From a virus, in IMG/VR virus record IMGVR_UViG_3300042346_001592, positions 1-64,000 of that record: a stretch of DNA of 64,000 nt; one strand, written 5' to 3'. The translations under genes were made by a program, and so were the position numbers. Position 1 is the stretch's first letter. The number at the start of each line of letters is the position of its first letter. Shown piece by piece: positions 3,310 to 15,320 of the stretch. The notes under the pieces were generated by a model. That model saw only the letters and a list, made by a program, of their open reading frames with translations, searched no databases and was not told where the DNA came from.

Positions 3310-3346
3310 AAGGGGTGGGATCAGATGATCTCACCTCTTTTTTTTT
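3310..3346 (+). terminator. Rho-independent terminator
   Basis: AAGGGGTGGGATC-AGAT-GATCTCACCTCTT stem-loop followed by T run, after the lipoprotein gene. Confidence 0.8.
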
Positions 3347-3366: not shown

Positions 3367-4269
3367 ATGACATTAAGAGAAATACAAGCCTACAACAACC
3401 GAAAGCCGGTTGAATTTGTTATAAGGGAAAACTTCAGGCTTATTGAAGATCAGGCTTATATTCCTAGATTTAAGCTCAAAGACATCTACCAAATCGCTGA
3501 TGTTCCGGTAAATGAGCCGATGAAAGTTACAGAAGCGTTGATTATAAAGGGAATCAAATACGGTATGATATTCTTGATTAACTATAAAGGTGAATACGAT
3601 AATCACTTTGCGGGTCACGAAAGAGTCTTTCAACCGATGGTTCTTGGTCGTTCATCCAAAGGAAAACTACTTATTCGTGGTTTTCACCTCAATGGATGGT
3701 CGGTTTCACAAAATAAAAAAATAGATAAAATCTGGAGAATGTTCAGACTCGATAGAATACTATCGATAACTTTCGTGGGATCTTTCTATAGACTACCACC
3801 ATCGGGTTATAATATGAACGATAGAGGTATGCGTGGTGGTATTATAGCTAGAGCTGATTTCAATGAGATCAGAAAAAACCAACAAACCCTCATCAAGCAG
3901 CAGAAAATTCAAAACAAAGATGAAGTAACTCTCGAAGATGATGGTCGTAAGTTTGTATCTATCAAGGCTAAGACTACTGATACACAATTAGATATGAATC
4001 GTCCTTTTGAAAATGCTTACATCAATAATCTAAAAGATACTAAAAATATAAGAATAAGCTTTCTTAAATCTCTTTACGGGAATCGTTGGATAGCACTTCT
4101 AGGAGCTATCGGTGAGACTGGAAACACAGTTAAAATTTTAGACGACAAAAATGTTAATATAGGTGTCTATAAAGTTTTAGACTCGATATCAGGAGATACT
4201 TTACAAAAAATTAAAAGAGTCAAAGGAAATTTCATGTTTGAGTTATTTTTATTTGATAAAAAATTATAA
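3367..4269 (+). CDS. WYL-domain protein
   Basis: INYKG...ERVFQPMVLG...LIRGF...WRMFRLDRILSI matches the WYL core (R...P..L, FRLDRI). Confidence 0.7.
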   Translation: MTLREIQAYNNRKPVEFVIRENFRLIEDQAYIPRFKLKDIYQIADVPVNEPMKVTEALIIKGIKYGMIFLINYKGEYDNHFAGHERVFQPMVLGRSSKGKLLIRGFHLNGWSVSQNKKIDKIWRMFRLDRILSITFVGSFYRLPPSGYNMNDRGMRGGIIARADFNEIRKNQQTLIKQQKIQNKDEVTLEDDGRKFVSIKAKTTDTQLDMNRPFENAYINNLKDTKNIRISFLKSLYGNRWIALLGAIGETGNTVKILDDKNVNIGVYKVLDSISGDTLQKIKRVKGNFMFELFLFDKKL

Positions 4270-4277
4270 ATAGATTT

Positions 4278-5369
4278 ATGAAAAGAATCGTAAAAATTTT
4301 AGAAAGTAGATTTCAAGAAGAACTACCTAATTTCATCCAGGATCTTCAAGATGATAGGGATGACTTTTTCAGTGGCCATACCTTAACAAAAATAAACAAG
4401 GAGGAGTTTCTACAAAGATATTTAGCTGATTATCCTAAAGAAATGATAGATACCTATAATCTATCTGCTTTTATTCAGAAAATAAACCAAACTCTTGAAG
4501 CTTTTCCTAACATTAGTAGTGAAATATTAGAAAGAAACTGGGATATTTACCTTAACTCGTTGGGCAAAAGAGATTACGATGATACAGGTGATCCAGATTC
4601 AGCACAAATTCAAGTAGAGTTCGATGATGAGCGTTCTATACTTAAAAAATCCACGTTTGAAAGAGAGAAGTATTTTATACAAATTGATCTTCTTAAAATG
4701 CAAGAATGGATTAAAGAACAGGGCAAAAAGATGATTATTGTATTCGAAGGACGTGATGCTGCTGGAAAAGGATCCACCATTAAAAGATTCATTGAATATT
4801 TAAATCCTCGAGGTTTTAGAGTAGTAGCTCTTGATAAACCAACACCAGAAGAAAAAAGAAATTGGTTTCAAAGATACGAAACTCATTTTCCTAAAGCTGG
4901 TGAAATTGTATTTTTTGATAGAAGTTGGTATAACAGAGCTGTTGTTGAACCAGTTATGGGATACTGCAGTGAAGAAGAATACAAAGATTTCATGGAGAGT
5001 GTCAATGACTGGGAAAGATCGATTACTGATTCCGGTATTATACTTATTAAATTTTGGTTCTCAATAACAAAGGAAAAACAAGAGCAAAGATTTGAAGCTA
5101 GAAAAAAATCACCACTCAAATATTGGAAGTTTTCACCAAACGATGCTAAAGTTATTGATAAGTATGAAATAATGACTTTCTATAAAAATCAAATGTTCAA
5201 TAGAACTTCCACAGATTTCGCACCTTGGGTTATTATCAACTCGAATGATAAGAAAGTAGGTATATTAAACTCCATGCGATATGTTCTTTCACAAGTTGAA
5301 TATCCAGATAAAAATCCATCTGTTATCGAGTGGTATCCAGAGGTAGTGAATATTCTTAAGTTAAACTAA
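4278..5369 (+). CDS. ppk2: Polyphosphate kinase 2 (class I-like) with about 110 aa N-terminal extension
   Basis: FEGRDAAGKGSTIKR Walker A, FDRSWYNR Walker B, IKFWFSI, PW..I.SNDKK. Confidence 0.92.
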   Translation: MKRIVKILESRFQEELPNFIQDLQDDRDDFFSGHTLTKINKEEFLQRYLADYPKEMIDTYNLSAFIQKINQTLEAFPNISSEILERNWDIYLNSLGKRDYDDTGDPDSAQIQVEFDDERSILKKSTFEREKYFIQIDLLKMQEWIKEQGKKMIIVFEGRDAAGKGSTIKRFIEYLNPRGFRVVALDKPTPEEKRNWFQRYETHFPKAGEIVFFDRSWYNRAVVEPVMGYCSEEEYKDFMESVNDWERSITDSGIILIKFWFSITKEKQEQRFEARKKSPLKYWKFSPNDAKVIDKYEIMTFYKNQMFNRTSTDFAPWVIINSNDKKVGILNSMRYVLSQVEYPDKNPSVIEWYPEVVNILKLN

Positions 5370-5378
5370 GCTCTTTTA

Positions 5379-6350
5379 ATGCTTATATTGTATGGCATAC
5401 AAACAACTGGACTAGGTCATCTATCAAGAAGTTTAAAAATAATCAAATCTCTTGAAAAAAGAGGCCACAAGGTTGATATCGTCACTTCTGGTCCAGATCA
5501 GAATATTTTAGATATAAAATCAAAACATTACAAAGGATATTCTTTTTTAAAAAATAAAGGGGGTGAAATTAGTATCACCCAAACACTTTTCGGTCAAGAT
5601 ATTTCTCAATTATACCGAGATATCAAAAACTTTCCTAAAAGAGATTATGATTTTGTTATTTCTGATTTTGAACCTATCTCTTCTTGGGTTTCCAAACACA
5701 GAAATATTCCTCTTTTTTCAGTATCTAATCAATCTAATTTTTCAAGTAGTAACTACACAAGACCCTTAAGTATTCTTGCCCTGAGTGAAGTAGTTATGAA
5801 AATTGGGATACCTTTTGGAAGACCGATTGGTTTTCACTGGAAACCATTTGATAATTTTATCTATAAACCTATTATAAGAGATGAAATATTCTTCGCTGGT
5901 GATAGGAAAGAAGAAGATTATTATTTAATCTATATAAACAATATGAATATAGAGAACACGATTGGTGTATTGAAGAGATTCGTGAAAGAAAACTTCATCA
6001 TTTATTCATCTGGCCCATATAGTGATAACTTACCAAAAAATATAAAAATAAAACAACTCAATTTCGAGAGCTTCACTAAAGATTTGATATCTTGTAAAGG
6101 TGTTATAACCAACTCTGGTTTTTCTACAATCACCGAGGCTATTTTTCTAGGAAAAAAATTAATGTCTGTTCCTCAAAAAAATCAATGGGAACAACTTTGT
6201 AATGCTTATGATCTAGCAAGGGATGGTTTTTTCATAGATGATAGCCTTGATAATTTAGATAAATTTATCGAAAGTCCTAAAACTACTATTGAACCTTGGA
6301 GTGATCCTTCAGAGGATATCGTAGATGAGATTCTTTTTGGGGTTGAGTAG
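5379..6350 (+). CDS. GT-B glycosyltransferase, MJ1255/VC2487-like (GT28 C-terminal related)
   Basis: ILYGIQTTGLGHLSR, VISDFEP, VITNSGFSTITEA, PQKNQWEQLCNA. Confidence 0.85.
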   Translation: MLILYGIQTTGLGHLSRSLKIIKSLEKRGHKVDIVTSGPDQNILDIKSKHYKGYSFLKNKGGEISITQTLFGQDISQLYRDIKNFPKRDYDFVISDFEPISSWVSKHRNIPLFSVSNQSNFSSSNYTRPLSILALSEVVMKIGIPFGRPIGFHWKPFDNFIYKPIIRDEIFFAGDRKEEDYYLIYINNMNIENTIGVLKRFVKENFIIYSSGPYSDNLPKNIKIKQLNFESFTKDLISCKGVITNSGFSTITEAIFLGKKLMSVPQKNQWEQLCNAYDLARDGFFIDDSLDNLDKFIESPKTTIEPWSDPSEDIVDEILFGVE

Positions 6351-6367
6351 AAAAAAAAAATAAATAA

Positions 6368-6844
6368 ATGACAAATGAAATAAAAATTTTCAAAAAAATA
6401 CTTAGTTCCAAAGACGATCCATATCTTGGTGTCGATTTTGAGTTCTATACAAGGTGGCGATTGATATTGAGAATACTCGTTGGATTAAATAAAAACTATA
6501 TCTGGACCCAAGTTTTCAGAAAAAAATATAAGTTCAACACACAACTTGCTGTAATTGGTCTTAAAACCTCGGGTCAAAATGTAAAGAGAAGAACCAAAGG
6601 ATTTGCTAAAGAATTTCTTTTAGAAAATAAAAATCCCAAATGTATATTCTGCCATCAAAAATTAACAGAAGAAAACGCCACGACCGATCATATTATACCG
6701 ATTAGTGAAAGGGGAACAAACGCTCAGGTAAATCTTGTTGTTTGTTGTGATAAATGTAATGTTGAAAGAGGAAACGCACCTTTTTACACTTATTTTAGAA
6801 AAAAGAACCCTTCAAGAGCAAAAGAAAAATATATATTCATATGA
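6368..6844 (+). CDS. HNH endonuclease
   Basis: CIFC...TTDHIIP...GTN...NLVVCCDKCN. Confidence 0.85.
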   Translation: MTNEIKIFKKILSSKDDPYLGVDFEFYTRWRLILRILVGLNKNYIWTQVFRKKYKFNTQLAVIGLKTSGQNVKRRTKGFAKEFLLENKNPKCIFCHQKLTEENATTDHIIPISERGTNAQVNLVVCCDKCNVERGNAPFYTYFRKKNPSRAKEKYIFI

Positions 6845-7620
6845 TAATAAGAGGCCCTAGATTCTCATTTGAGATGAGTGATAGAGAACACAACGATTTT
6901 AAGAATTTAGTTGTTGAAAAACTAGAACTTGTTTATGGTAAAGATTCATTCTCACAAGTAGATGGTATTTGGGGCAACTTTTTAAATCCAGTAGAGGGTA
7001 TTGAAAATCCAAATCGTGTAAAAAGTATATTAAACTACTTGAATACCAATATTCTTTTTAGAGAAATGATCTGTAAGAAAAATACTTCTCTATCAAATTA
7101 TAGTGAATTGAGGGATTATTTTGATAAAAACTACCAAAAGTTTATCGAGAAGAGTGGTGAGTATTTCGGTCAAGTTTTACAACTCTTAGAAAGAACCGAA
7201 GAAAAAGGTGTCGCAAATGAACTTTCGGCCATACCAAGATTAAAAAGAGGCCTAAAGGAAAAACTTTCTCTAGATGTTGATGTCTATAGAACTGAAACGG
7301 ATTCTAAAGATGATTTGATATTTGGTATTGATATTTATTATCTAGAAGATGGTCAGATGGTTGGATGTCAAGTCAAACCACTAAAATCTTTCCAAGAAGA
7401 TGCAGACCATATTATTATCGAAAGTTCAGGCCTTATAAAAAAATACAGAGGTATCAAGTTTTTAATCTTTATTGATAGACATCCATCAGAAAATCCAAAT
7501 GAAGAGAAATATGTTCGCGGCACTAAATTCTTTATCTTCTATAATGATCCTCTAGAAATACAGAATAAAACACTTGTATTCTCAAGAGGTTCTCTTTTTT
7601 ATACCAATCAAATACCATAA
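6841..7620 (+). CDS. Putative PD-(D/E)XK nuclease-fold protein
   Basis: GVANE...DDLIFGIDIY...GCQVKP resembles the E...D..(Q/E)xK catalytic arrangement. Confidence 0.45.
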   Translation: MIIRGPRFSFEMSDREHNDFKNLVVEKLELVYGKDSFSQVDGIWGNFLNPVEGIENPNRVKSILNYLNTNILFREMICKKNTSLSNYSELRDYFDKNYQKFIEKSGEYFGQVLQLLERTEEKGVANELSAIPRLKRGLKEKLSLDVDVYRTETDSKDDLIFGIDIYYLEDGQMVGCQVKPLKSFQEDADHIIIESSGLIKKYRGIKFLIFIDRHPSENPNEEKYVRGTKFFIFYNDPLEIQNKTLVFSRGSLFYTNQIP

Positions 7621-7670
7621 AAAAAATGAAAATATTTTTTTAATATATAAATAAAAAAAAACATAAAAAC

Positions 7671-8300
7671 ATGAAAAGGAAAATTAAAGATTTCTCAAAA
7701 TTCGTAAATGAAGAACTCGAAATGAGAGACGAAATGTATGGTGGTGAGGAAACTGAAACCATGCCTATTACAAAACCAGTTACTAAACCAAGACCAGGTA
7801 TTGGAACAATACCAGCTCCGGTTCCTGGAACAGAACCAGATCCACAAGGCTCACGCAGATTCATGGATGATACCATGTACGATGAGTTTGATACTGATAT
7901 GCGTGAAATCGAATCAGAAGATGATGGAGTAGAATACGAAGATAACATTCAAACCGAAGAGGAAGAGGGTGTTTATATCGGAACAAAACTTATGGAAGAT
8001 CTTGCTGATGAACTTGGTGTTGAAATCGTTGATAATCAAATCAATTATAATGGACACGTTATCAACTTCTACTCTGAAACCGAAGCTTTTGACATCGACG
8101 GTGAATCTTATACTAGAGACGAACGTGGTAAAAAAACTCCTATAAAGACCGTAGAACAAGTTCTTGACTTTTTGAATAAAGGCCAAGATAGAGGTATGAC
8201 CAAGCCAAGTCGTATGGCACAACCAAGTCGTATGGCACAACCAAGTCGTATGATGGAAGAAAGATTCAGAGCAGGACGTGGAAGACCTGGTAGAATTTAA
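7671..8300 (+). CDS. Acidic low-complexity protein, putative internal head/scaffold protein
   Basis: N-terminus MKRKIKDFSKFVNEE, D/E-rich, preceded by TAATATATAAATA at 7641-7653. Confidence 0.6.
   Translation: MKRKIKDFSKFVNEELEMRDEMYGGEETETMPITKPVTKPRPGIGTIPAPVPGTEPDPQGSRRFMDDTMYDEFDTDMREIESEDDGVEYEDNIQTEEEEGVYIGTKLMEDLADELGVEIVDNQINYNGHVINFYSETEAFDIDGESYTRDERGKKTPIKTVEQVLDFLNKGQDRGMTKPSRMAQPSRMAQPSRMMEERFRAGRGRPGRI
8205..8252 (+). repeat. 18-bp tandem repeat (CCAAGTCGTATGGCACAA, about 2.7 copies) encoding PSRMAQ
   Basis: Read directly from sequence. Confidence 0.9.
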
Positions 8301-8302
8301 TA

Positions 8303-9724
8303 CTAACTAAAAATATCCACAATAACAGATAACCGCTTCGTTATCTGAGGCATGTTGAGCGGTTCAATAATAGAGTTTATCGGTGATAAAATTGATTTAT
8401 TGAACTGCTCATCAAGGTCTATTTCAGGAGCAAATTCGATAGGGTAAGCCCCTCGTATATAAGCGAATACTTCATTCATCGCTTTATTTTTCACATAATA
8501 ATATTTAATCTTCGTTCCTGATTTAATAAACTCGTATTTAACTTGATGATCCCTGTTTTGATGAAGTAGGTAGTTATAATACGCCGATGCTTTCACAGCA
8601 AAGTGTGTGCCTGATTCAAACTTTAGACCAGTCTTATCTTCTAAAACTTTCTTTTCGTATGAAGAGCAAGAGCTTTGCATACAAATATCATCAATTCTAT
8701 CAGGTGCACAAAGATCGAACTCTCGCTTCAAGTTTTTAACTAGCTTCAATAACTCTTTGATATTGAAACTATCTGGATTCTGAAAGAGATATTTAATAAC
8801 ATCTACAATTTTATCACGAGCAAAAAGTGGTGTTGAAGAACGAACAAGTTCTACACCTTTCGGGAAGATATATTTAAACCTATCGTAGTTAATACCATCC
8901 TCATATACAATGTGTTGAATGTATTTCTTTTTAGCTACATTGATAATAGATTCCGAAATACGTTCAAGCTCAAAATCTTGACGATTATCTACACCAAAAG
9001 AAGCCGCATAGGATTCCAGTTTTTCTGAAAAATATCCAGCGTATCTAAACTGGTCAATACCATGAATAAAATCAAGCTCTTTAGACCAGTTCCATCTAAC
9101 ATCGTTTGTGATAGAATTTTTTTCTAAAATCTCGAGAAGTTTTCTGTTTTTAGCCCAGGCGCCGTCGATGATGATTCCAACACCTTTATTCTCGGAAACA
9201 AACTCATCGAATTCATCAAGATTTTGTGTGGATAACTTTGTATAGGTTGTAGATTTTGGCTGATTTGCTCCCCAGAGAATGATATGATCTTTTTTGAGTT
9301 TATCTAAATTATCAAAAAATAAGTTTTGCCACTCGCAATGTGCGATTACCGGTTGAAATGAAACAAAAACCGAATCGGTATCAGCGTAAATTGAAACTTC
9401 ATTACCGGGAGTATTTAAGATTTGACGTGGATTTTTTATACAAAGTTTTCGATGAAGCTCTGTATCTAGATGCCACTTTTGATACCAATACTCTTGATTT
9501 ACACGATCCATTGTTTGGGTGAGATCCCTTCCTTGTGCGGTGATAGTTGAAGCTACGTTGTTGTTATAAAGAACAAAATAGCTGTTAGCAAAAGCTCCGT
9601 AACTACCGTTGAGAACAAGTTTCAAGGCGTTTTGCATAGCGTTGTAGAAATCAACTTCTTCTTTTATCTTTTCTGCTTTTTCTTTAAGTTCTGCTATTTC
9701 TTTTAAGGTTTGTTCTCTAGTCAT
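8303..9724 (-). CDS. Family B DNA polymerase, C-terminal subunit of a split gp43-like enzyme
   Basis: Starts just before motif B (QNALKLVLNGSYG); has YADTDS motif C, KKKY, KGVELVRSSTP; lacks exonuclease and motif A. Confidence 0.88.
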   Translation of the reverse strand: MTREQTLKEIAELKEKAEKIKEEVDFYNAMQNALKLVLNGSYGAFANSYFVLYNNNVASTITAQGRDLTQTMDRVNQEYWYQKWHLDTELHRKLCIKNPRQILNTPGNEVSIYADTDSVFVSFQPVIAHCEWQNLFFDNLDKLKKDHIILWGANQPKSTTYTKLSTQNLDEFDEFVSENKGVGIIIDGAWAKNRKLLEILEKNSITNDVRWNWSKELDFIHGIDQFRYAGYFSEKLESYAASFGVDNRQDFELERISESIINVAKKKYIQHIVYEDGINYDRFKYIFPKGVELVRSSTPLFARDKIVDVIKYLFQNPDSFNIKELLKLVKNLKREFDLCAPDRIDDICMQSSCSSYEKKVLEDKTGLKFESGTHFAVKASAYYNYLLHQNRDHQVKYEFIKSGTKIKYYYVKNKAMNEVFAYIRGAYPIEFAPEIDLDEQFNKSILSPINSIIEPLNMPQITKRLSVIVDIFS

Positions 9725-9735
9725 GGTATTTAATT

Positions 9736-10518
9736 TTAATCTGAAAAATCTTGCTCGTAAGAGAGCATTAGATTTGAGTTATATCCTTTAACCAGAACAA
9801 AAGTTTCAAATATCCATAAATCAACCCAATCAAAATTAGCATCTATTGAACCGAGATATTTTTTAAGAAAAGATATTTGATGATTCTTCTTATCCGATAC
9901 ATTATCTACTTCAAGTTCCCACTTACCTAGTTCAGATACTTTTACAACCCCACTCTCGAGATTGATTGAGATTACTCTGTCGTCTATATTGATTTGAGAG
10001 AGTTTCTTAATAGCGTTCAAATCAGGCGCTGAGAGTTTGAAACCCCATTTTGATAGTTTCGGATCGAGTTTTTGATCAAGTGTTTTTTGAGTGAGATCAC
10101 GAATTTGAGAGTTCTCACTCGATACCGATGAAATTTTCAACTTATTATTAGAAAACTGAATAGTTCTTATTTCATAAGTGTTCTGATAAGCGGCCGACTC
10201 TTTGTAAATAGTATCTAGATGAATAGGATGTGAAGTATCAAAAAAAGATAACCCCTTTACCAGTTTTGAAGCTGGTGATATAATAAAATCTAAACTATCT
10301 TTATCAATCTCAAAATTCTGGAAGTATTCTCCAGTTTTCAAGGTAAAACTTTTAAGAGCCGATATGAATGAATCGGTAGAAGCTACTGAGTAGAGAAGAA
10401 TATTTTCATTGGATATCTTCAACTTCACGGTATCAGATATAGCCGCAACATCACGAATCTTCGATAGAAGATCCGAGAATTTTTCTGGCACAGCAACTAT
10501 TTTTTTCTTTAGGCTCAT
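9736..10518 (-). CDS. Putative sliding clamp (gp45-like)
   Basis: 260 aa, two-repeat alpha/beta pattern, adjacent to polymerase; based on size, pattern and context. Confidence 0.55.
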   Translation of the reverse strand: MSLKKKIVAVPEKFSDLLSKIRDVAAISDTVKLKISNENILLYSVASTDSFISALKSFTLKTGEYFQNFEIDKDSLDFIISPASKLVKGLSFFDTSHPIHLDTIYKESAAYQNTYEIRTIQFSNNKLKISSVSSENSQIRDLTQKTLDQKLDPKLSKWGFKLSAPDLNAIKKLSQINIDDRVISINLESGVVKVSELGKWELEVDNVSDKKNHQISFLKKYLGSIDANFDWVDLWIFETFVLVKGYNSNLMLSYEQDFSD

Positions 10519-10534
10519 TTTTTGTTTTTATTAT

Positions 10535-11035
10535 TTAAGTGTGTTGAAGATACATCATCAAATCATTAACGTTTTTAACCGTAAAACCAACCGATTCTAG
10601 GTTTTTGGAAGTAGCTCGTAAAAAATCTACATGAGTTTCAAGTAGTTGAATATTTCTTTCGTATTCAGCTAGATGAGCTTCTACCAATTGAGTTTTTTCT
10701 TGAGAGTTGGTTTTAACAGAGAATCCAATCGCGTAGAAAATAAACTTTTGGTTTTTGAGCTCTTTCAGGAAGACTTCTTGCTTGCTTCTTTTGTTTAGAA
10801 AAAAAGCTATTTGTTCGTTTATCATTTGCCTGTAAGAAAGAGCAAGAGATTGAATCTCAATAATTTTACCAGCGTTGGTTCTATTAAAGTTTGGGATAAG
10901 CTCATCATAAATTGGTTTGAGATTTTTAATCCATTCGTCTCTCTTATTTGCTAAAAATTCTTCGAGACGATTGTTGTCCTCTCTCTTTTTTGAGATTTGT
11001 TCTAGTTCTTGTTCTGAAAAAGGTGATAAGTTCAT
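10535..11035 (-). CDS. Putative recombination mediator (UvsY-like)
   Basis: 166 aa helical protein ending ...GFTVKNVNDL, similar in layout to UvsY; replication context. Confidence 0.5.
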   Translation of the reverse strand: MNLSPFSEQELEQISKKREDNNRLEEFLANKRDEWIKNLKPIYDELIPNFNRTNAGKIIEIQSLALSYRQMINEQIAFFLNKRSKQEVFLKELKNQKFIFYAIGFSVKTNSQEKTQLVEAHLAEYERNIQLLETHVDFLRATSKNLESVGFTVKNVNDLMMYLQHT

Positions 11036-11053
11036 TTGGTTGTATGAACTTTG

Positions 11054-11061
11054 TATATATA
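11054..11061. promoter_or_regulatory. Palindromic TATATATA between divergent genes
   Basis: Single motif in the 33-nt gap between UvsY-like (-) and PlcP-like (+) genes. Confidence 0.45.
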
Positions 11062-11068
11062 AGATGAA

Positions 11069-11815
11069 GTGGAAAGTTTAACGAAAATCAGAACACTATT
11101 CATAAGTGATGTTCATTTGGGATCACCACAATCAAACGCTGAAGCTCTGCTTGAAGTTCTCAAGACCTACCAGTTTGATGAACTTTATATTGTAGGAGAT
11201 TTTTTAGATCTCACAAGTTTAAGAAGAAAGTTTTTCTGGAAAACTTCACATTCTACCGTGATACAGAAAATATTAAGACTATCAAGAAAAGGTCTCAAAG
11301 TTGTTTATATTGTTGGTAATCATGACTATTGGATAAGAAATTTAATCGAAGAGGGTAATATTCATCTTGGTGATATTCTTATTTGTAATAGCTATATTTA
11401 TACTACTACTCTAGGTGAAAAGATCTATGTAACACATGGTGATGAGTTTGATGGATTTGTAAGGGTTCATCCCTTTTTGTATTGGCTCGGTGACAGAGCC
11501 TATTCTCTATCGATGAAAATCAACAAGGTTTATAACATCATCAGGAAATGGTTCGGTATGGATTATTGGTCACTTTCTGGATATCTTAAATCAAGAGTAA
11601 AAAACGCGGTGATGTTCCTTACAGAATACAAAAAAATGGCAAGAATAAAATTGAAAGATACCGGATGTGATTCAATTTTGATGGGTCATATTCACACACC
11701 AGATTTAGTAATAGGTGAATATTATAACACCGGTGATTTTTGTGAAAGTAATACCTATATCATCGAACATTTAGATGGTCGTATTGAACTTAAGTGGTGT
11801 AAAAATAACGATTAA
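11069..11815 (+). CDS. Metallophosphoesterase of the PlcP/LpxH-like family (putative phospholipase C)
   Basis: RTLFISDVHLG, GDFLD, VIQKILR..RKG, GNHD, HGDEFD, LGDRAY, YWSLS..LK..VK.AV.F, GHIH, NTGD. Confidence 0.8.
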   Translation: MESLTKIRTLFISDVHLGSPQSNAEALLEVLKTYQFDELYIVGDFLDLTSLRRKFFWKTSHSTVIQKILRLSRKGLKVVYIVGNHDYWIRNLIEEGNIHLGDILICNSYIYTTTLGEKIYVTHGDEFDGFVRVHPFLYWLGDRAYSLSMKINKVYNIIRKWFGMDYWSLSGYLKSRVKNAVMFLTEYKKMARIKLKDTGCDSILMGHIHTPDLVIGEYYNTGDFCESNTYIIEHLDGRIELKWCKNND

Positions 11816-14693: not shown

Positions 14694-15320
14694 ATGTATA
14701 AATATTCCTCAAAGATTGAATCAAATTTCAAAGCTTCGATTAGTCCAAAAAATTCATTTTTTGGTTCCGATGTGCCACTCAACCATGAAATAAGTTCTAA
14801 ATTACTAGAGGAAAGAATAATTTTTTTGACAGGTGAGCTCGATGATTATTTATGTAATAGCATAAAATCACAACTACTTTATCTAGAACAGGTCTCGCCT
14901 AGAGAAGATATCAAAATTTATATTGATTCACCTGGTGGTTCGGTCTATTCAGGATTGGGTCTTCTAGACACGATGGAGTATATTTCTTGTGATATACAAA
15001 CTATCAATACGGGTCTAGCGGCCTCGATGGCTGCTATAATTCTTTGTTCTGGAACCCCAGGTAAAAGAAAATCACTTAAAAGAAGTCGATGTATGATTCA
15101 CCAACCACTGGGATACACTGGATACGCACAAGCTTCTGATATCGAAATTGATGCTAGAGAAATTAATTCATTGAAAAGGGAACTCTATGAAATTATAGCC
15201 GAAAAAACCGGTCAAAAATTTGATAAAGTCCATAAAGACGGAGATCGTGACTACTGGATGTCTTCACAAGAAGCTAGAGGTTATGGAATGATCGATGAAA
15301 TTCTCACAAAACGTATTTAA
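14694..15320 (+). CDS. clpP: ATP-dependent Clp protease proteolytic subunit
   Basis: YIDSPGGSV, GLAASMAA (Ser), MIHQP (His), DRD (Asp). Confidence 0.95.
   Translation: MYKYSSKIESNFKASISPKNSFFGSDVPLNHEISSKLLEERIIFLTGELDDYLCNSIKSQLLYLEQVSPREDIKIYIDSPGGSVYSGLGLLDTMEYISCDIQTINTGLAASMAAIILCSGTPGKRKSLKRSRCMIHQPLGYTGYAQASDIEIDAREINSLKRELYEIIAEKTGQKFDKVHKDGDRDYWMSSQEARGYGMIDEILTKRI

Follow-up and report, generated by a model that had tools for sequence, protein, structure and literature searches.

PlcP is the enzyme with which Proteobacteria under phosphate starvation free diacylglycerol from their phospholipids, and the glycosyltransferase encoded next to it, Agt, makes glycolipids (PMC4796936, PMC8528852). 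The pathway is represented by S. meliloti SMc00171, Phaeobacter MED193_17359, SAR11 HTCC7211 and the P. aeruginosa pair PA3219/PA3218. In ocean metagenomes plcP becomes more frequent as phosphate grows scarce. Phosphate depletion also induces a plcP homologue in two flavobacteria (PMC4796936, PMC8115612); in one of these, F. johnsoniae, a PlcP (Fjoh_4577) and a glycosyltransferase (Fjoh_0541, of the phoBR operon) are both strongly induced (PMC8115612). The subject of this analysis is a related pair of genes carried by a virus. The DNA analysed here (the window) comprises positions 1 to 64,000 of an IMG/VR record of 142 kb (IMGVR_UViG_3300042346_001592; estimated completeness 56%, G+C content ~33%), whose source is a jumbo phage of Bacteroidota-type hosts. 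On its plus strand the window encodes a metallophosphoesterase (PF00149; 248 aa, GTG start; 11069-11815) and a GT-B glycosyltransferase (GT; 323 aa; 5379-6350). We propose, at a probability of roughly 0.55, that these two genes form a host-derived cassette that turns host phospholipid into phosphorus-free glycolipid for the phosphorus demand of the phage. What would then be carried out is a known pathway; what is new is its carrier, a phage.

In outline, the PlcP-type metal-dependent esterase would cleave host glycerophospholipid, releasing its phosphorylated head group and leaving diacylglycerol (the main substrate in Bacteroidota would be phosphatidylethanolamine), and the GT-B enzyme, of family PF13528, would glycosylate this diacylglycerol from a nucleotide sugar, yielding a phosphorus-free glycolipid. 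The membrane would stay intact while its lipid phosphorus is freed for the very large DNA demand of the phage. We infer this conversion, its substrates and products and the phosphorus benefit alike, from homology and from the conserved pairing of the two genes. The likeness to the PlcP-Agt pathway lies in an esterase of the same clade with shared motifs, and in its genomic pairing with a glycosyltransferase, which mirrors the plcP-agt operons of Proteobacteria (PMC4796936). The phage pair differs from that pathway in its carrier, in the family of its glycosyltransferase (PF13528, where Agt is GT4), in that Pho-box control is not applicable, and in that its activity is predicted.

Judged by its sequence, the esterase belongs with PlcP, not with LpxH, and it is a predicted phospholipase C acting on glycerophospholipids. 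Its identity to the S. meliloti PlcP-locus protein is 40% over 243 aa (E 9e-61), and to P. aeruginosa PlcP likewise 40%; identity to E. coli LpxH is 27% and is restricted to the N-terminal 131 aa. Both LpxH equivalog models score it far under their cut-offs (43.6 bits for NF003743, cut-off 134; 30.6 bits for TIGR01854, cut-off 190.35). In a maximum-likelihood tree of 46 rows (IQ-TREE) the branch that separates LpxH from PlcP has a support of 100/100 (ultrafast bootstrap and SH-like approximate likelihood ratio test, SH-aLRT), and the window esterase stands on the PlcP side. The LpxH side of this tree holds E. coli LpxH, LpxH-like genes of Ignavibacteriota, Zixibacteria and Kryptonia, and the second copies of Bacteroidota genomes; the PlcP side holds the S. 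meliloti and P. aeruginosa references, Proteobacterial neighbours of GT4 or ppk1 genes, two Bacteroidota clades and a clade of phage esterases that is separate from the rest (support 98-99). (The two validated PlcP references were recovered from mislabelled chromosomes or chromosome fragments in a plasmid collection. The S. meliloti gene adjoins genes for an N-acyl-homoserine lactone synthase and a LuxR protein, presumably sinI and sinR, the neighbours of SMc00171. The P. aeruginosa gene is followed by a GT4 gene and then by an adenylate cyclase gene, which is the PA3219-agt1-cyaB locus in the layout given by PMC8528852. The two references share 47% identity; the published value is 46%.)

The initial annotation of this DNA had recognised a PlcP motif set in place of a generic phosphoesterase, and had named a phylogeny of PlcP against LpxH as a way to check it; the motifs agree with the tree. 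All of them are present in the translation (VIQKILRLSRKG, WLGDRAYS and YWSLSGYLKSRVKNAVMF), and in an alignment of 36 sequences, from which they are drawn as empirical discriminators and not from a published definition, the blocks YW..H..V.QK.LR..RKG, LGDxAY, YWSLS..LK.KVK, HGDxFD and NxGD(W/F)xE(S/N) characterise the PlcP side and do not occur in any LpxH-side row. They are found in S. meliloti and P. aeruginosa PlcP, in the phage clade and in Bacteroidota paralogues, and are weakest in the Bacteroidota majority clade. The general metallophosphoesterase motifs (SDVHLG, VGDF, GNHD, THGD and GHIH) are intact in the window protein and kept in 14 phage homologues, across which the metal-binding residues D14, H16, D44, N84, H123, H207 and H209 are invariant or nearly so. 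A simpler discriminator, GNHD for PlcP and GNRD for LpxH, is not general: GNRD is confined to E. coli LpxH, and the LpxH-side sequences of the FCB group have GNHD.

Among the top matches to the esterase are contigs of 630-770 kb, which were considered as bacterial genomes and which their gene content identifies as megaphages. Three genes from metagenome-assembled genomes (MAGs) of Bacteroidota (L010, L011 at 7956-8741, and L012) nest in the phage esterase clade at 56-57% identity, as sisters to a megaphage sequence. One of them lies among ordinary bacterial genes on a chromosome of 2.49 Mb and another comes from Kapaibacterium; the chromosomal copy is convergent to a GT2/GT21-like gene, not to a PF13528 GT. 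This nesting may reflect transfer from phage to bacterium, or it may mark the donor lineage.

The second enzyme of the pair matches PF13528 at 135.6 bits (cut-off 25), and its C-terminus has weak similarity to PF04101. Against TIGR00661 (MJ1255/VC2487) it reaches 149.3 bits, under the cut-off of 195.9, so that its initial designation as an MJ1255-type glycosyltransferase holds for the Pfam family and fails for the curated NCBIfam subfamily. All 23 residues that are invariant in a 30-sequence alignment of the GT family are retained. The structural model (predicted local distance difference test, pLDDT, 88) has the GT-B fold, and its closest solved structures are GT1-type UDP-glycosyltransferases and MurG. 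The predicted reaction of the protein is the transfer of a sugar from a nucleotide donor to a lipid, which we infer to be diacylglycerol.

The pairing of the two families was followed with a hidden Markov model (HMM) that was built from GT homologues and scanned over every fetched esterase locus. In Bacteroidota, where the initial annotation had suggested looking for adjacency of plcP and GT, a PF13528 GT directly adjoins the esterase at 27 of 33 PlcP-side loci, mostly downstream of it and overlapping; beside LpxH-side genes the same HMM finds none (0 of 85 loci). Examples in cells come from Parabacteroides distasonis (UNS60_RS17625/RS17620) and from one MAG each of Flavobacteriales and Bacteroidia; Fjoh_4577 and Fjoh_0541 of F. 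johnsoniae may be comparable. (Against five Bacteroidota genomes whose esterase is an orphan, the GT profile gives weak matches or none.) The pair is also common in viruses: among the IMG/VR viral contigs found via the esterase, 34 of 44 have a GT within 10 kb of it, and in 29 of these 34 the two genes abut on the same strand. Pairing extends to phage contigs of 260-640 kb, and in megaphages of 630-640 kb the genes abut. These observations support the GT as a conserved genomic partner of the esterase in Bacteroidota as well as in many large phages. In the window the two genes are on the same strand and 4.7 kb apart; the initial description of a GT within 7 kb is correct, though it understates the association, since the genes abut in most relatives. 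Esterase and GT form a cassette, whose members have been drawn 4.7 kb apart in the lineage of the window. The Bacteroidota operon has the same two families in the same order, and the window GT clusters with phage GTs and with the GTs of that operon; it is the phage esterases that form a separate clade, and the split between the window genes that sets their arrangement apart.

A phosphorus role for PlcP in phages gains independent support from the cultured Pelagibacter phage Mosig (L236, MT647606.1, 3903-5738), in which a separately acquired PlcP-side gene is the divergent neighbour of one for a putative phosphate ABC transporter of the pstS type. (The Mosig gene is labelled UDP-2,3-diacylglucosamine hydrolase in its record, and its authors call it an LpxH-like hydrolase, without comment.) Several points weigh on the other side. 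The phage esterases sit on a long branch of their own (0.54-0.60), so their specificity may have shifted. The phage clade, the Bacteroidota clades and PF13528 are all without a characterised enzyme: no literature on family PF13528 was found and no characterised member located, and C. tepidum MgdA, which was tried as one, gave nothing usable. The known partner of PlcP, Agt, is a GT4 enzyme (PF13439/PF00534), which is what PA3218 and the neighbour of Sphingomonas plcP are, and the window GT is PF13528. The Agt partners of PlcP in Agrobacterium reportedly include GT21 enzymes as well, not PF13528. At a distance of 4.7 kb the window esterase and GT are probably not on one transcript, and genes for PhoH, PstS and Ppx were not found in the 142-kb record.

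How the pair might be read otherwise depends in part on what the esterase is taken to cleave. An LpxH-type UDP-2,3-diacylglucosamine hydrolase, with the pair acting on lipid A precursors, is what public sources would suggest, since they name homologues of the esterase LpxH, and what solved structures would suggest: the AlphaFold model (pLDDT 77.5) has a phosphoesterase core with a helical lid inserted at residues 124-198, as LpxH has, and LpxH accounts for all of the top 25 matches in the PDB. This fold match cannot discriminate between PlcP and LpxH, since the PDB, by sequence and fold searches, contains no PlcP structure. What does discriminate is the other clade, the equivalog scores and the missing LpxH-side sequence blocks of the window protein. 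Moreover, in five of five Bacteroidota genomes that hold a PlcP-side gene, plus G001, a second, distinct gene has the higher score on the LpxH model, and the GT is not LpxB. That the pair works on lipid A precursors is thus very improbable. An LpxH-like fold with its lid fits a lipid substrate, and this bears as well on the notion that the pair serves some non-lipid substrate, as in nucleotide or DNA modification, to which the location of the window genes among those for a family B DNA polymerase (PolB), an HNH endonuclease and PPK2 might point. Elsewhere, in bacteria as in other phages, the pair occurs in unrelated contexts, and we give a non-lipid role hardly any credence.

Other readings grant the pair its lipid substrate and differ as to purpose or extent. 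Many other glycosylation genes are present in the window, and because the phage carries them a surface or membrane-property role for the pair is possible; the envelope might be remodelled so as to exclude superinfecting phages, mask receptors, time lysis or anchor glycans that the phage makes. Such remodelling would suit the further glycosyltransferase and sugar-nucleotide genes of the window and its relatives, as well as the missing classical Pho genes, and in several megaphages an FKBP/SlyD-type gene follows the GT-esterase pair (L006 9749-10165; L237 10747-11163; L239 10749-11165) with lysis-type hydrolases near. It is difficult to square with the wide occurrence of the pair as an operon on Bacteroidota chromosomes, with the phosphate-starvation induction of plcP in the two flavobacteria (PMC4796936, PMC8115612) and with the place of the Mosig copy next to a phosphate transporter gene, and we consider it unlikely as the explanation of the pair. 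The initial annotation, for its part, had joined a third gene to the phospholipid-to-glycolipid cassette, the class I PPK2 (363 aa; 4278-5369, plus strand), in one selected unit that would mobilise membrane and polyphosphate phosphorus together. The GT gene starts 9 nt after PPK2, an adjacency confined to the window and its close relatives L001/L002. In the megaphage L008 PPK2 is one gene from the pair (esterase, GT, GGACT and PPK2 within 3.3 kb), an arrangement unlike that of the window; a third lineage has esterase and PPK2 ~12 kb apart; and a Mitsuaria plasmid (L137, 2914-6729) has a PlcP-side gene that is immediately followed by ppk1 and has ppx as a further neighbour, a cellular PlcP next to polyphosphate genes. 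Surveys of phages speak against such a unit: PPK2 was found within 10 kb of the esterase at none of 44 IMG/VR loci reached via the esterase, and the esterase within 10 kb of PPK2 at none of 48 reached via PPK2; five large phage records with the pair, of which three have a completeness of 94% or more, gave no PPK2 match; and the esterase is present in 2 of 14 PPK2-bearing records of at least 100 kb, those of the third lineage. Since PPK2 is near the pair in this lineage and one other only, and was not found in the three near-complete pair-bearing records, a three-gene system is unsupported, the two-gene cassette is supported, and selection of all three genes as one unit is quite doubtful. PPK2 is a neighbour, not a regular or obligate part of the lipid pair.

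PPK2 itself is, on the evidence of model scores and motifs, a bona fide class I enzyme: it matches PF03976 (E 6e-82), passes the class I equivalog TIGR03707 (314.7 bits, cut-off 301.8), and conserves the Walker A motif (GRDAAGKGS) and the lid motif FFDRSWYNR. It is a separate gene, common in jumbo phages, whose product would make nucleoside triphosphates from nucleoside diphosphates and host polyphosphate, and it may serve the same economy of phosphorus and energy as the pair. That viruses encode ppk2 has been reported previously (PMC13188868). An N-terminal extension of ~120 aa (4278-4640) lies outside the Pfam domain and recurs in a diverged form in the PPK2 of L008. The gene between GT and PPK2 in that 630-kb phage (9786-10112) is gamma-glutamyl cyclotransferase-like (GGACT).

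A literature search found no paper on a phage-borne PlcP or on plcP as a viral auxiliary metabolic gene. The phage genes known to relieve a shortage of phosphorus (pstS, phoH) work through its uptake or through regulation. The esterase-GT pair resembles these and the viral ppk1 and ppk2 genes in being host-derived and expected to ease the phosphorus limitation of replication, and is unlike them in targeting membrane lipid, not uptake or regulation. Conversion of phospholipid to glycolipid by a phage would make the host membrane a further reservoir of phosphorus, which is relevant to phages with genomes rivalling those of small bacteria, and the pair would give a first functional handle on the widespread Bacteroidota operon of PlcP-like esterase and PF13528 GT. 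A wider proposition can be put forward tentatively, as conceivable and not as probable: that the membrane of the host loses phosphorus during infection to huge Bacteroidota phages and, in an independent case, to a SAR11 myophage, with PlcP cleaving, a dedicated GT family backfilling glycolipid, and PPK2 recruited beside the pair in some lineages to tap polyphosphate. Were it true, membrane lipid would be a quantitatively important source of phosphorus for replicating genomes of 250-640 kb. (Three nearly complete IMG/VR megaphages, G305, G306 and G309, of 476, 281 and 436 kb, are labelled 'provirus' by IMG/VR, an unlikely label for them that may be a classification artefact.)

The layout of the locus is as follows. 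A strong terminator-like hairpin (3310-3339) precedes a co-directional run of plus-strand genes, which opens with an open reading frame of 300 aa to which no family is assigned (3367-4269) and continues with PPK2, the GT, an HNH endonuclease gene (6368-6844) and two open reading frames, again without family assignment. Three minus-strand genes come next, among them that for PolB (8303-9724); the esterase gene is a lone plus-strand gene with minus-strand genes on both sides. The reading frames of PPK2, GT and esterase are intact, exactly at the coordinates given initially, and together with the family matches they bear out the three genes of the initial annotation. That they flank replication genes is also correct, the C-terminal part of PolB and the HNH endonuclease lying between them. 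A very large genome, which had likewise been supposed, is plausible from 142 kb at the estimated completeness. Gene order is identical in the relatives L001/L002 (89% protein identity). A promoter scan with a sigma-70 model gave 44 matches against 36 expected and is of little informative value.

Some minor observations concern neighbouring genes. The PolB gene encodes the C-terminal part of the polymerase only (positions 490-839 of PHROG 262) and looks split or interrupted; the HNH gene is 1.5 kb off. The region as a whole is flanked by genes for a ClpP protease (14694-15320) and a DUF2793 protein (2-1330). Megaphages with the FKBP/SlyD-type gene encode another metallophosphoesterase, strongly diverged (22% identity), at a distance of 2-3 kb, near GH108/GH19 lysis-type genes (L006 11902-12642; L237 13148-13903). 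In relatives of the window, more GT2 and GT1 genes follow a few kb downstream (L001 15658-19129).

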